A DNA stretch of 64,000 bases from Escherichia coli (GTDB lineage Bacteria > Pseudomonadota > Gammaproteobacteria > Enterobacterales > Enterobacteriaceae), in the NCBI RefSeq assembly GCF_003334355.1, contig NZ_QOWP01000012.1; one strand, given 5' to 3'. The notes beneath the pieces are model-generated. The model saw only the letters and a program-made list of their open reading frames with translations, made no database searches and was not told the origin of the DNA. Shown here one piece after another: positions 8,737 through 60,686 of this stretch (position 1 is its first letter; each line of letters opens with the position of its first letter). The position numbers and the translations under genes are program-made.

Positions 8737-8835
8737 TGCCTGATGCGGCGTTAACGCCTTATCCGGCCTACAAAGTCCTGCAGATTCAATATATTGCAGG
8801 TACTGCGTAGGCCTGATAAGCGTAGCGCATCAGGC
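8737..8835. repeat. REP/BIME repeat cluster
   Basis: GCCTGATGCGGCGTTAACGCCTTATCCGGCCTAC and TAGGCCTGATAAGCGTAGCGCATCAGGC units between convergent ybiU and ybiT. Confidence 0.7.
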
Positions 8836-11685: not shown

Positions 11686-12804
11686 CTAGTTGGCCGGGAG
11701 TATAACTAACAAAACATATCCCACCAACGCCGCCCACAACAGCATCGGTATTGAATAGAGATGGAAACGCCACCAGATGCGGCGATCGTTCGCCATACGT
11801 AGCGCAATCAAATTTGCCAGCGATCCGGGTAATAACCCAAAGCCACCTACGTTTACCGCCCATACCAGTAATAAAGACGGCGGCACATAGTTCAGCAACA
11901 ATATGGTACTCGGCACGTTACTGATCACCTGCGATAAACCGATTGCCGTTAACCATAACCCGGGTTCAGATAGATGACTCACGTTACCCAACACGCCTTG
12001 CAACGCTGGAAGCTGGGTCAGTAAATGGACGTCGATAAACATCGCCATAAACACCAGCAGCAGCGTCCAGTCCACACTGAGCACCACGCGACGTGCCAGC
12101 AGCGCAAAGCCTGCCGCCACAATCACCAGTCCCCACAGCTCTTGTTTGAACTCCAGCGCCGTCAGAAAGACGATATACAGCCCCAGACAACTCCACACCA
12201 GCCGCGGTTTCCACTCCGGTGTTTGCACCCCCGTATGGTATTGCAGCGCCTTTCCAGGGAAACAACACCAGCACAGGAGCAGGAGCGTCAGCATCATTGC
12301 GCCAGCCAGCGGTGCCATTTGGGCAATAAATCCGGCAAACGAAAGACCAGAACGTCCCCAGATAAGAATATTTTGCGGGTTGCCAATTGGCGTCAGTAGC
12401 GAACCAGCGTTGACTGCCAGCGCCTCAAAAATAATCAGCCGATTAACCGGGATCTCACACAGTCTTTTTAGCGTGATAGTCAGCGGAACAACAATAAACA
12501 GCGCGACATCGTTGGTCAGAAAGGTAGAAAGCAGCGCCGCCGCCAGCACCATAAACATCGCCAGCCGACGCTCCGTAGCAAAGCGGCGCACCATTTTGCG
12601 CCCCAGCACATCAAAATAACCGCTTAACTCCACACCTTTGGTCAGCAGCATCAGGCCGCTTAAGGTGATGATGGTGTGCCAGTCGATAGCAGCAGGCCAG
12701 GATTTCGGTGCAAAGGGCACGAAAAAGCTTAATCCGATACCAACAAGAATTAATAACTGAAAAAAACGATCGCCTTGCAGCGTGCGTAAAAAAGGCAGAC
12801 TCAT
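11686..12804 (-). CDS. ybiR: Putative anion permease (ArsB/NhaD-like inner membrane transporter)
   Basis: 372 aa hydrophobic ORF; start overlaps the mntR stop. Confidence 0.85.
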
Positions 12805-13268
12805 TTGGCACCGTGTTTCTGGGTAAACAAACGAAAAGCGTCGAGCGTCTCTTCACTAACATGGTGCTCCATGCCTTCCGCGTCGCGACGGGCGATTTCC
12901 GGACTGACGCCCAACACCAACAAGAAATTTTCGACTATCTGATGTCGCTCGCGGCTTTCCTGCGCCAGCTTCTCTCCTTCTGCCGTTAAAAACACGCCAC
13001 GCCAGGGGATCATTTCAATCAGCCCCATGGTTGCCAGCCGCTTAAGCATTTTAGCCACCGTCGGTTGCGAAACTCCCAGACGAGCAGCCATGTCCACCTG
13101 ACGAGCTTCCCCCACTTCCCTGATCAAGTCAGAAATCAGCTCAACGTAATCATCAATAAGCTCGCGCCGATGCGCCTCTCTGACCTGGCGGAACCCTTCA
13201 ACGTGCTCTTCCACGTTCACTAACTGCGTCACTTTTTTTGCTGTTGGCGTACCTGCGCGACGACTCAT
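12801..13268 (-). CDS. mntR: Manganese-responsive transcriptional regulator (DtxR family)
   Basis: 155 aa ORF recognised as MntR with N-terminal HTH. Confidence 0.9.
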
Positions 13269-13453
13269 TGTGCTTCCTCATTATGGTGACGCATACATAG
13301 CGTTCTCATTTCGTGCGCACATTGTAAACCAGAGTTGCGAAGGTACAAAAAATTAACGTTTTAGCAATAGCTATATAATATAGCCTGTGCTATATCTGTA
13401 TGTAATGCAATCATCCCTCAAGGATCGACGGGATTAGCAAGTCAGGAGGTCTT

Positions 13454-13582
13454 ATGAATGAGTTCAAGAGGTGTATGCGCGTGTTTAGTCATTCTCCCTT
13501 TAAAGTACGGTTAATGCTGCTCTCTATGTTGTGCGATATGGTCAACAACAAACCGCAGCAAGATAAACCTTCCGATAAATAG
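13454..13582 (+). CDS. mntS: Small protein MntS (42 aa)
   Basis: ATG preceded by AGGAGG; translation MNEFKRCMRVFSHSPFKVRLMLLSMLCDMVNNKPQQDKPSDK; divergent from mntR; below the 60-aa cut-off of the ORF track. Confidence 0.8.
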   Translation: MNEFKRCMRVFSHSPFKVRLMLLSMLCDMVNNKPQQDKPSDK

Positions 13583-13853
13583 CGGCGTCGCGGTACGCCG
13601 CTTCACTCCTGCTTTCATGCAGGCATAACGCGTTTTGGTCTGAAAAACCCCACTTTTTGTCGGATTTGCAATCCCCTTCGCAAAAGATTTGTTCGTCAGT
13701 AGTTGACCTGAACGGCGGCTCGCTCTATCTTCTTGCAGCCCTGCGTATATTGCGGCTCGCGGATGCGGACCCCTTTCCACTCTTCACGCACTCTTGCAGG
13801 TATTGACCCTTGACGCCAGGGTAAGCACATGGCGTTTGTTACGATAGTGGCAT

Positions 13854-15437
13854 ATGAATTTAACCCTCAAAGAATCGCTTGTTACCCGTAGCCGGGTATT
13901 TAGCCCGTGGACTGCGTTCTACTTTTTACAGTCGCTATTAATTAACCTCGGCTTAGGTTACCCCTTCAGTTTGCTCTACACCGCTGCGTTTACGGCTATT
14001 TTGCTTTTGCTATGGCGAACATTGCCTCGCGTACAAAAAGTTCTGGTCGGTGTCAGTTCGCTGGTGGCGGCTTGTTATTTCCCTTTTGCTCAGGCCTACG
14101 GCGCGCCTAATTTCAATACATTGCTGGCATTGCACTCCACCAATATGGAAGAGTCGACCGAAATCCTGACGATTTTTCCGTGGTACAGCTACCTGGTCGG
14201 CTTATTTATTTTTGCGCTCGGCGTAATAGCAATCAGGCGAAAAAAAGAGAATGAAAAAGCGCGCTGGAATACCTTCGACAGCCTGTGTCTGGTATTCAGT
14301 GTGGCGACATTTTTTGTTGCTCCCGTGCAAAACCTGGCCTGGGGTGGCGTATTTAAACTGAAAGATACTGGCTATCCGGTATTTCGTTTTGCTAAGGATG
14401 TCATCGTCAATAATAACGAGGTGATTGAAGAGCAAGAACGGATGGCAAAACTTTCCGGAATGAAAGATACCTGGACGGTCACTGCCGTTAAGCCGAAGTA
14501 TCAGACCTATGTGGTGGTGATCGGTGAAAGCGCGCGTCGCGATGCCCTCGGTGCCTTTGGCGGTCACTGGGACAATACCCCGTTTGCCAGCAGCGTTAAC
14601 GGTTTGATATTTGCTGACTACATTGCCGCCAGTGGCTCCACGCAGAAATCGCTTGGCTTAACGCTCAATCGCGTTGTCGATGGCAAACCACAGTTTCAGG
14701 ATAACTTTGTCACCCTGGCAAATCGCGCGGGCTTCCAGACCTGGTGGTTTTCCAACCAGGGTCAAATCGGCGAATACGATACCGCTATCGCCAGCATCGC
14801 CAAACGAGCAGATGAAGTGTACTTCCTGAAAGAAGGTAATTTTGAAGCAGATAAAAACACCAAAGACGAAGCGTTACTGGATATGACCGCTCAAGTGCTG
14901 GCGCAAGAGCACTCGCAACCGCAGCTGATTGTTCTACATCTGATGGGCTCACATCCGCAGGCCTGCGACAGGACACAAGGAAAATACGAAACCTTTGTGC
15001 AATCGAAAGAAACGTCGTGCTATCTCTATACCATGACGCAAACGGACGATTTACTGCGCAAGCTGTACGATCAGTTACGCAACAGCGGCAGCAGCTTCTC
15101 GCTGGTTTACTTTTCTGACCACGGTCTGGCCTTTAAAGAGCGCGGTAAAGACGTGCAATACCTTGCCCATGATGATAAATATCAGCAAAATTTCCAGGTG
15201 CCTTTTATGGTCATTTCCAGCGACGATAAAGCGCATCGTGTGATTAAAGCCCGCCGCTCAGCCAATGACTTCTTAGGCTTTTTCTCCCAGTGGACGGGGA
15301 TTAAAGCGAAGGAAATTAACATCAAATACCCGTTTATATCTGAGAAGAAAGCCGGGCCGATATACATCACCAACTTCCAGTTACAGAAGGTGGATTACAA
15401 CCATCTCGGAACCGATATTTTCGACCCGAAACCTTAA
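13854..15437 (+). CDS. opgE: Phosphoethanolamine transferase for osmoregulated periplasmic glucans
   Basis: 527 aa ORF with N-terminal transmembrane segments and sulfatase-like C-terminal domain. Confidence 0.85.
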   Translation: MNLTLKESLVTRSRVFSPWTAFYFLQSLLINLGLGYPFSLLYTAAFTAILLLLWRTLPRVQKVLVGVSSLVAACYFPFAQAYGAPNFNTLLALHSTNMEESTEILTIFPWYSYLVGLFIFALGVIAIRRKKENEKARWNTFDSLCLVFSVATFFVAPVQNLAWGGVFKLKDTGYPVFRFAKDVIVNNNEVIEEQERMAKLSGMKDTWTVTAVKPKYQTYVVVIGESARRDALGAFGGHWDNTPFASSVNGLIFADYIAASGSTQKSLGLTLNRVVDGKPQFQDNFVTLANRAGFQTWWFSNQGQIGEYDTAIASIAKRADEVYFLKEGNFEADKNTKDEALLDMTAQVLAQEHSQPQLIVLHLMGSHPQACDRTQGKYETFVQSKETSCYLYTMTQTDDLLRKLYDQLRNSGSSFSLVYFSDHGLAFKERGKDVQYLAHDDKYQQNFQVPFMVISSDDKAHRVIKARRSANDFLGFFSQWTGIKAKEINIKYPFISEKKAGPIYITNFQLQKVDYNHLGTDIFDPKP

Positions 15438-17395: not shown

Positions 17396-18043
<648 letters not shown>

Positions 18044-28789: not shown

Positions 28790-28915
28790 GTAGGACGGAT
28801 AAGGCGTTTACGCCGCATCCGGCAACAGATGCCTGATGCGACGCTACCGCGTCTTATCAGGCCTACAAAATCCGAACCGTTGGACGGATCAGGCGTTTAC
28901 GCTACGTCCAGCACA
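28790..28915. repeat. REP/BIME repeat cluster (three REP units)
   Basis: GGACGGATAAGGCGTTTACGCCGCATCCGGC, GCCTGATGCGACGCTACCGCGTCTTATCAGGCCTAC and GGACGGATCAGGCGTTTACGCTACGTCC units. Confidence 0.7.
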
Positions 28916-48417: not shown

Positions 48418-49407
48418 TTAGCCGCCAATGTACGATAAGTTTTGCGTAATACCGGTGTTGTTTTGATGCAGGAAATGGGTCTGTTTCTTCTCCCGCAGCG
48501 CCGCTGAAATACGCGCTTCCAGCGCCTGTTGCTGGGTATCGTCTTCCAGCAGATCGCGCAGGTTAACGCCGCCTTCACCAAACAGGCAGAGATGGAGTTT
48601 ACCAATAGAGGAAACGCGCAGGCGGTTGCAAGTGGCGCAGAAGTCTTTTTCATACGGCATGATAAGGCCAATCTCTCCGGCGTAATCTGGATGGCAAAAG
48701 ACTTGCGCGGGACCGTCGCTGCGTTGACGTAATTGGTGGATCCAGCCGCGACGCAGTAGCTCGTCACGCAGAACCTGACCAGAGATGTGATGCTTACGGA
48801 AGAGCTCGCTGCCCTCGCCCGTTTCCATCAGTTCGATGAAACGCAGCTGGATAGGGCGATGCTGGATCCAGTTCAGAAAGGTGTCGAGCTGGTGATGATT
48901 AACATCACGCATCAGCACGGTATTGACTTTGACCTTCTCAAAACCGGCCTCAAATGCAGCATCAATCCCTGCCATGACCTGGTTGAATTTATCCTGCCCG
49001 GTAATAGCGTGAAACTGGCGGGCGTCCAGACTGTCGACACTGACGTTAATGCCAGTAAGTCCCGCATCGCGCCAGTTCGCCACATCGCGTTCCAGACGGT
49101 AACCATTGGTTGTGACCGCAATCTGGCGGATAGCGTCGTTTTCCCGCACAGCGGCGATGATATCGGTAAAGTCGCGGCGTAAAGACGGCTCTCCTCCTGT
49201 CAGGCGCACTTTTTCGGTGCCCAGACTGGCGAAGGCGCGCGTAACCCGGCGAATTTCATCGACGGTAAGAAAGCCTTTATTGGTGACGCCGCTCGGTTTG
49301 TAGCCATCCGGCAGGCAGTAGGTGCAACGAAAGTTACACACATCGGTAATCGACAGGCGCAAGTAGTAAAACTTACGCGCAAATGCATCAGTCAGTTGTG
49401 AAGCCAT
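48418..49407 (-). CDS. moaA: GTP 3',8-cyclase MoaA (radical SAM)
   Basis: Translation from [31 protein letters not shown] gives 329 aa with CxxxCxxC; the ORF-track 27-aa extension lies in the leader and is rejected. Confidence 0.9.
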
Positions 49408-49560
49408 GTACACCTTTCCAGATACGGGAGGCGAAGTCATTTCTTCCTTCGCCCTGGTGGCAATCTTTACGAGCATTGTCACGGCCAAAGCACCGTATCA
49501 GTTGACCCAGGTGCAGAGGCTAGAGTGTTTAGTGGTTATGCCGATACTAGCGTGTAAATG
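49408..49560 (-). ncRNA. moaA 5' leader, candidate Moco riboswitch (cis-regulatory RNA)
   Basis: Structured, conserved-looking leader directly upstream of moaA; assigned from established knowledge that the E. coli moaA leader carries the Moco RNA motif. Boundaries are approximate. Confidence 0.5.

Positions 49561-60461: not shown

Positions 60462-60686
<225 letters not shown>

Follow-up and report, generated by a model that had tools for sequence, protein, structure and literature searches.

The manganese-responsive small-protein gene mntS (rybA) of Escherichia coli and its promoter-operator region

What does the short interval divergent from the manganese regulator gene mntR encode in Escherichia coli, and how is it controlled? 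The window analyzed here, a stretch of 64,000 nucleotides from E. coli contig NZ_QOWP01000012.1, carries on its minus strand (12801-13268) the gene for the Mn2+-sensing, DtxR-family regulator MntR, recognized by NCBIfam NF008273 (269 bits; cut-off 153). An original prediction, made from the DNA letters, had placed on the opposite strand a 42-codon gene for MntS, together with a plausible near-palindromic MntR operator upstream of it and a GC hairpin after its stop codon. Our analysis leaves little room for doubt that this interval is E. coli mntS, with its transcript RybA and its promoter-operator, that it is repressed by MntR and that it encodes MntS, an inhibitor of MntP. The gene, its control by MntR and its MntP target are already published, and the gene is in RefSeq. 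The additions made here are the conservation of tandem MntR boxes 19 bp apart in 77 species, the loss of a U tract in Escherichia and a conserved leader hairpin carrying GGA.

A small coding gene divergent from mntR

The mntS coding sequence lies at 13454-13582 on the plus strand, where an ATG opens 42 codons closed by a TAG stop and specifies the product MNEFKRCMRVFSHSPFKVRLMLLSMLCDMVNNKPQQDKPSDK. A Shine-Dalgarno sequence, AGGAGG, stands on the same strand at 13444-13449 and ends 4 nt before the ATG. RefSeq annotates mntS (b4705 in K-12) at exactly these coordinates, and the product matches the equivalog family NF033226 (small_MntS), scoring 96 bits where the family threshold is 36 (E = 6.3e-28, over profile positions 1-40 of 41), both of which bear out the identification of this ORF as MntS. 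A Pfam search returned no MntS family. The ORF had also been described as missed by the ORF track, and it is indeed absent from that track; this follows solely from the 60-aa cut-off and does not amount to a gap in the annotation. Such a cut-off hides real, functional small-protein genes, and mntS was recovered correctly from the letters alone.

Positions 12700-14000 matched 5,422 of 5,426 complete E. coli genomes, with best hits that were 100% identical, and ybiR, mntR, mntS and opgE are annotated at the locus in these identical genomes. The segment 11000-15900 is colinear with K-12 MG1655 and differs from it by two substitutions in 4.9 kb, both in ybiR; a K-12 coordinate r is converted into a window position w by w = 13454 + (852997 - r). 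On the mntR side, the mntR stop and the ybiR start share 4 nt (ATGA, 12801-12804), suggesting that mntR and ybiR, which encodes a putative anion transporter, are translationally coupled in one operon.

Conservation was assessed with MntR as bait and one locus per species in 80 species of Enterobacteriaceae, from genera that include Escherichia, Citrobacter, Salmonella, Enterobacter, Kluyvera, Klebsiella, Raoultella, Kosakonia, Leclercia, Lelliottia and Franconibacter. Absence of the small ORF from related enterobacteria had been named beforehand as a result that could refute the prediction. A MntS homologue was found upstream of and divergent from mntR in 77 of the 80 loci, or 77 of the 78 that have an upstream flank; two of the three loci without mntS (L046 and L084) have no such flank. 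The ORF is intact in all 77 loci, with 41-44 codons, and AGGAGG is kept at the same distance in 76 of them. Across the 77 orthologues the N-terminal core of the protein (MNEFKRC...HSPFKVRL) is nearly invariant and the polar C-terminus is variable. The third codon position dominates the variation at the nucleotide level, with minor-allele fractions of 0.113, 0.052 and 0.227 and variable columns numbering 16, 10 and 30 of 33 at the first, second and third positions, respectively. Of the alternative frames, +1 is closed in 77/77 loci and +2 in 76/77, being open in one. The segment 13454-13582 is a real coding gene, mntS, with a coding-type pattern of substitution.

Published work agrees with this on the protein side. 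MntS is expressed, and the phenotypes of its overproduction are due to the protein, not the RNA, and are independent of Hfq (PMC4361602). MntS binds and inhibits the manganese exporter MntP (bioRxiv 10.1101/2023.06.02.543501). Ribo-seq or proteomic data had been proposed as a check on the 42-aa product, and such data exist for Salmonella, where MntS was called from published Ribo-seq data and a Western blot showed the protein.

MntR boxes and the mntS promoter

Judged by their sequence, the AT-rich palindromes between mntR and mntS represent a tandem pair of mntH-type MntR boxes that flank the -10 element. The proximal box is a perfect 7-4-7 dyad, ATATAGC-CTGT-GCTATAT, at 13378-13395 (no strand assigned to either box), which covers -9 to +9 and is centred on the transcription start; its exact core occupies 13380-13393. 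The core of the distal box, TTAGCAATAGCTAT (TTAGC-N4-GCTAT, 13361-13374), lies 19 bp upstream in the spacer between -35 and -10 and carries one mismatch to ATAGC-N4-GCTAT. A consensus -10 hexamer of the mntS/rybA promoter, TATAAT (13374-13379, plus strand), is completed by the five bases that separate the cores and ends 7 nt before 13387. The notion of an MntR operator in this region was therefore right, but the operator is not the pair of strings in which it had been drawn. Both strings are present, AGCTATATAATATAGCC at 13369-13385 and GTGCTATATCTG at 13387-13398, and the first of them runs from the right half-site of the distal box across the -10 into the left half-site of the proximal one. 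A repeat finder reported a 15-nt inverted pair, 80% complementary, at 13362-13376 and 13378-13392, as one of eight inverted pairs listed in total.

The arrangement is strongly conserved. The proximal half-sites ATAGC and GCTAT are unchanged in 77/77 loci, and the intergenic DNA around them varies. The distal box stands exactly 19 bp upstream in the same 77 loci, with no mismatch in 15, one in 60 and two in 2. The -10 position reads TAAAAT or TACAAT in other genera. Within the 64-kb window the exact core ATAGC-N4-GCTAT was found twice against a mean of 0.06 in shuffled sequence, and none of 100 shuffles reached two. The only two exact cores in the window are those of mntS and of the dps promoter, where ATAGCCGGTGCTAT lies at 17477-17490, 50-63 bp upstream of the dps ATG. 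As dps is a published MntR target according to the citation of Yamamoto et al. (2011) in PMC10003395, both exact cores in 64 kb stand at MntR-regulated promoters. The dps core also abuts or overlaps TATACT, a -10-like hexamer.

Upstream of the boxes, an A/T block on the plus strand, ACAAAAAATTAACG(TT), occupies 13343-13358, or about -44 to -29 of PmntS. Its first part, ACAAAAAATTAACG (13343-13356), and a second segment, CTGTATGTAATGCA (13397-13410), flank the boxes and are at least 95% conserved among 76 distinct Enterobacteriaceae sequences. The upstream block looks like an UP-element A tract joined to the best -35-like hexamer, TTAACG (4/6 matches, 15-bp spacer), and its part in the promoter would follow from this resemblance. 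A consensus promoter scan of the plus strand did not call PmntS because its -35 is weak. Position 13387 is taken as +1 from the K-12 annotation and from a CLIP-seq peak whose edge is at 13386. With the boxes (13361-13395) spanning both the -10 and the annotated 5' end, the position of the operator is compatible with repression.

Regulation of this kind is on record. Transcription of mntS is repressed by MntR with manganese (PMC4361602), and expression from a PmntS-egfp fusion was lowered by added manganese, released from repression when mntR was deleted and brought back under control when mntR was supplied in trans (PMC9806134). The original prediction had made MntR-dependent regulation at this promoter a point on which it could fail, and these two studies settle that point in its favour.

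Several other features of the intergenic region were noted. A candidate Fur box at TGTAATGCAATCAT (13397-13410) was dropped, as by eye it appeared to be offset from the register of the Fur consensus and a paper on the Fur regulon contains no discussion of mntS among the targets of Fur. In the third of the loci without mntS (L016, Citrobacter sp. R56), AT-rich foreign DNA is inserted upstream of mntR exactly at the centre of the proximal box (...TATAATATAGC, junction, TTTGATTT...), and no mntS was found within the 2.5 kb of upstream flank at this locus. Closer to mntR, two blocks are conserved across genera, CATTGTAAA at 13320-13328 and GTGACGC at 13286-13292, the former reading TTTACA, a -35-like sequence, on the minus strand. 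Promoter-like sites on that strand at 13406-13377 and 13309-13280 are candidate mntR promoters, and the first would lie under the mntS boxes.

The RybA transcript, its 3' hairpins and its leader

The mntS transcript is annotated in K-12 as the non-coding RNA rybA (b4416), 340 nt long, at 852725-853064, which corresponds to 13387-13726 on the plus strand of the window; shorter forms end at 13606 and 13635. Seven RybA RNAs that share their 5' end and range from 205 to about 400 nt have been described (PMC4361602). Term-seq 3' ends (Adams et al., 2021; PMC7815308) map to K-12 852845 (13606, 4 nt past the stem of the hairpin described below), 852816 (13635) and 852973 (13478, 24 nt into the mntS ORF). 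Counted from 13387, these ends give RNAs of 220, 249 and 92 nt, respectively, which together with the annotated 340 nt agree with the set of seven RNAs; the end inside the ORF may reflect processing, premature termination or protein protection. The 205-nt species is about 15 nt shorter than 13387-13606, and one of the mapped RybA ends may be slightly off.

As originally noted, a GC-rich hairpin, AGCGGCGTCGCGGTACGCCGCT, follows the coding sequence. It lies at 13581-13602 on the plus strand, with an 8-bp stem (13581-13588 paired with 13595-13602) and a 6-nt loop, and its stem takes in the final two bases of the mntS stop codon. Folding predicts a second small hairpin, CCUGC-UUUCAU-GCAGG (13608-13623), which is followed by CAUAACGCGUUU up to the 3' end at 13635 (the whole at 13608-13635, plus strand). 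The stem of the first, GCGGCG...CGCCGC, was recovered in 74 of 77 species, its start lying between -1 and +2 nt relative to the stop-codon end. At least five T occur in the 9 nt after the stem in 64 of these 74 species, the commonest tail being TTCATTTTT. The count is four in the window (TTCACTCCT, 13603-13611) and 2-4 in three Escherichia loci and the window taken together. The tail of the hairpin in the window reads UUCACUCCU, and the E. coli tail, UUCACUCC, differs from that of Salmonella or Enterobacter, UUCAUUUUU. The U tract is also decayed in some Kluyvera and Citrobacter.

At 13581-13602 there is accordingly no GC stem directly followed by a U tract, as an intrinsic terminator would have, and a terminator scan was negative because the U tract is absent. 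From the comparison among species we conclude that the hairpin is the mntS intrinsic terminator hairpin, that its U tract has decayed in Escherichia and that in E. coli it is not canonical. This loss may explain the long RybA isoforms. The folding energy of the 3' region is unremarkable (z = -0.9), and the hairpin is supported by its conservation, not by its stability. It is near-invariant across genera, including the loop (TCGCGGTA in 54/74), and the adjacent C-terminal codons vary freely. The constraint on the hairpin exceeds the needs of a plain terminator. An Rfam search of 12500-14500 gave no match even at E <= 1, and there is therefore no RybA family in Rfam for this segment. Over the whole window, an Rfam scan at gathering thresholds returned a Moco (molybdenum cofactor) riboswitch at 49395-49539 on the minus strand, three naRNA4 elements (1981-2058, 28793-28863 and 60522-60592) and three ES036 elements (at 8772, 34099 and 50804).

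An alignment of 40 leaders revealed a further hairpin between the transcription start and the Shine-Dalgarno sequence. Predicted from folding and covariation, it occupies 13413-13434 on the plus strand and consists of AUCCCUC, a 7-nt loop AAGGAUC and GACGGGAU, with a GGA in the loop at 13422-13424. On this structure 89.5% of the alignment cells are paired, and four of six pairs have changed on both sides. The covariation score of 0.263 compares with 0.186 for shuffled alignments (0/500 reach it), and all slid registers scored lower. In 64 of 77 species the predicted loop contains GGA, with the loop motif CA(A/C)GGA; E. albertii has GGU. The folding energy of the leader is again unremarkable (z = +0.48), and the evidence for the hairpin is conservation and covariation, not stability.

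Leaders bound by CsrA usually combine a GGA in a hairpin loop with a GGA in the Shine-Dalgarno sequence, as in those of glgC and cstA. The mntS leader resembles such CsrA-repressed leaders: the loop GGA (CAAGGAU) is accompanied by a Shine-Dalgarno GGA at 13445-13447, 23 nt downstream, a pairing that makes it a candidate CsrA site by sequence, and a CLIP peak was recorded in vivo. This peak (peak_81) covers mntS at K-12 852943-853065 (13386-13508; logFC 1.93, padj 5.8e-12; Potts et al., 2017, PMC5694010), and its maximum at 853004 (13447) falls inside the Shine-Dalgarno sequence. In the same table, peak_82 covers the 5' end and early coding sequence of mntR at K-12 853179-853402 (13049-13272; PMC5694010). 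Our literature search found no report of a functional effect of CsrA on mntS. The candidate site in the conserved leader hairpin, for which CLIP binding is on record, is the only underexplored point of this locus.

We tentatively propose, with the odds somewhat against us, that mntS is under a second, post-transcriptional control by CsrA and, separately, that the tandem MntR boxes bind two dimers cooperatively across their 19-bp spacing. Repression of MntS translation by CsrA, if it occurs, would couple the retention of manganese that follows from MntP inhibition to the carbon status and growth phase of the cell. If the tandem boxes bind cooperatively, the manganese switch at mntS could be sharper or more sensitive than that at mntH.

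Regulation of mntS and relation to known systems

These elements can be combined into a simple scheme. Transcription would begin at about 13387 by way of the consensus -10 TATAAT at 13374-13379. At high cytoplasmic Mn2+, Mn2+-MntR dimers would occupy both boxes, roughly from -28 to +9, and the geometry of the site suggests that bound MntR would block RNA polymerase, so that mntS would be made only under manganese scarcity. The 67-nt leader with its strong AGGAGG would then drive translation of the 42-aa MntS, which binds and inhibits MntP and thereby raises cellular manganese. At the other end of the transcript, the degraded U tract would make the terminator leaky in Escherichia, in keeping with the ladder of longer RybA RNAs.

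Could the locus instead be mainly a non-coding regulatory RNA, RybA, with the 42-codon ORF incidental or secondary? The gene was first found as an sRNA and its K-12 annotation is still a 340-nt ncRNA, a 2012 study by Gerstle (cited in PMC4361602) reportedly found aroF and aroL to be repressed by RybA during peroxide stress, and a 3' hairpin more conserved, loop included, than the C-terminal codons beside it is unexpected for a plain terminator. Set against this, the substitutions are of the coding type, the frame is kept in 77 species and conservation extends to the Shine-Dalgarno sequence; the protein has been detected and binds MntP, the overproduction phenotypes track the protein and are Hfq-independent (PMC4361602), and no Rfam family matches the region. 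We consider an RNA with an incidental ORF very improbable. A dual function of RybA, as protein and RNA, is possible; a purely non-coding role no longer is. Less credible still, to the point of being negligible, is the reading of the AT-rich near-palindromes as promoter elements or chance repeats with no site for a regulator. It draws on the fact that the centre of the palindrome is the -10 itself, with a -10-like TATATT also on the minus strand, and that short palindromes arise readily in AT-rich intergenic DNA, as the eight inverted pairs illustrate. Neither circumstance accounts for an exact 10-base core expected 0.06 times and found twice, both times at MntR-regulated promoters, nor for half-sites unchanged in 77/77 species and the presence of the same core at mntH and mntP. 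Conservation and the published mntR-deletion data (PMC9806134) refute it. An MntR-repressed mntS gene encoding an MntP inhibitor is the reading that we retain.

This gene is the same as the K-12 mntS/rybA, which was reportedly the subject of work by Waters, Sandoval and Storz in 2011, by Martin and colleagues in 2015 and by Wright and colleagues in 2024; the sequence of the interval is identical and the neighbours are the same, with mntR divergent and opgE downstream. As for its origin, the signal peptide of SitA has been proposed as the evolutionary source of MntS. The two share a PF motif and their length, and sitA is also linked to mntR, whereas in MntS the AXA cleavage site and, with it, the mature domain are reported to have been lost and the hydrophobicity to be lower.

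The operator can be compared with those of other MntR-controlled genes. A comparison with the mntH and mntP boxes had been suggested with the original prediction, and the core ATAGC-N4-GCTAT, read from K-12, proved identical in all of them. At mntH, whose promoter box was reportedly described by Patzer and Hantke in 2001, the box reads AAACATAGC-AAAG-GCTATGTTT (AAACATAGCAAAGGCTATGTTT). It is a single box with 9-bp arms, in contrast to the tandem pair at mntS, and no second MntR box was found when one was sought 19 bp from the first. The dps promoter likewise has a single box, and dps does not encode a manganese transporter. Far upstream of mntP, TTAGCCAAAGCTAT and ATAGCTTAGGCTAT form a pair of boxes 40 bp apart that function in activation, whereas those of mntS are 19 bp apart and lie over the core promoter.
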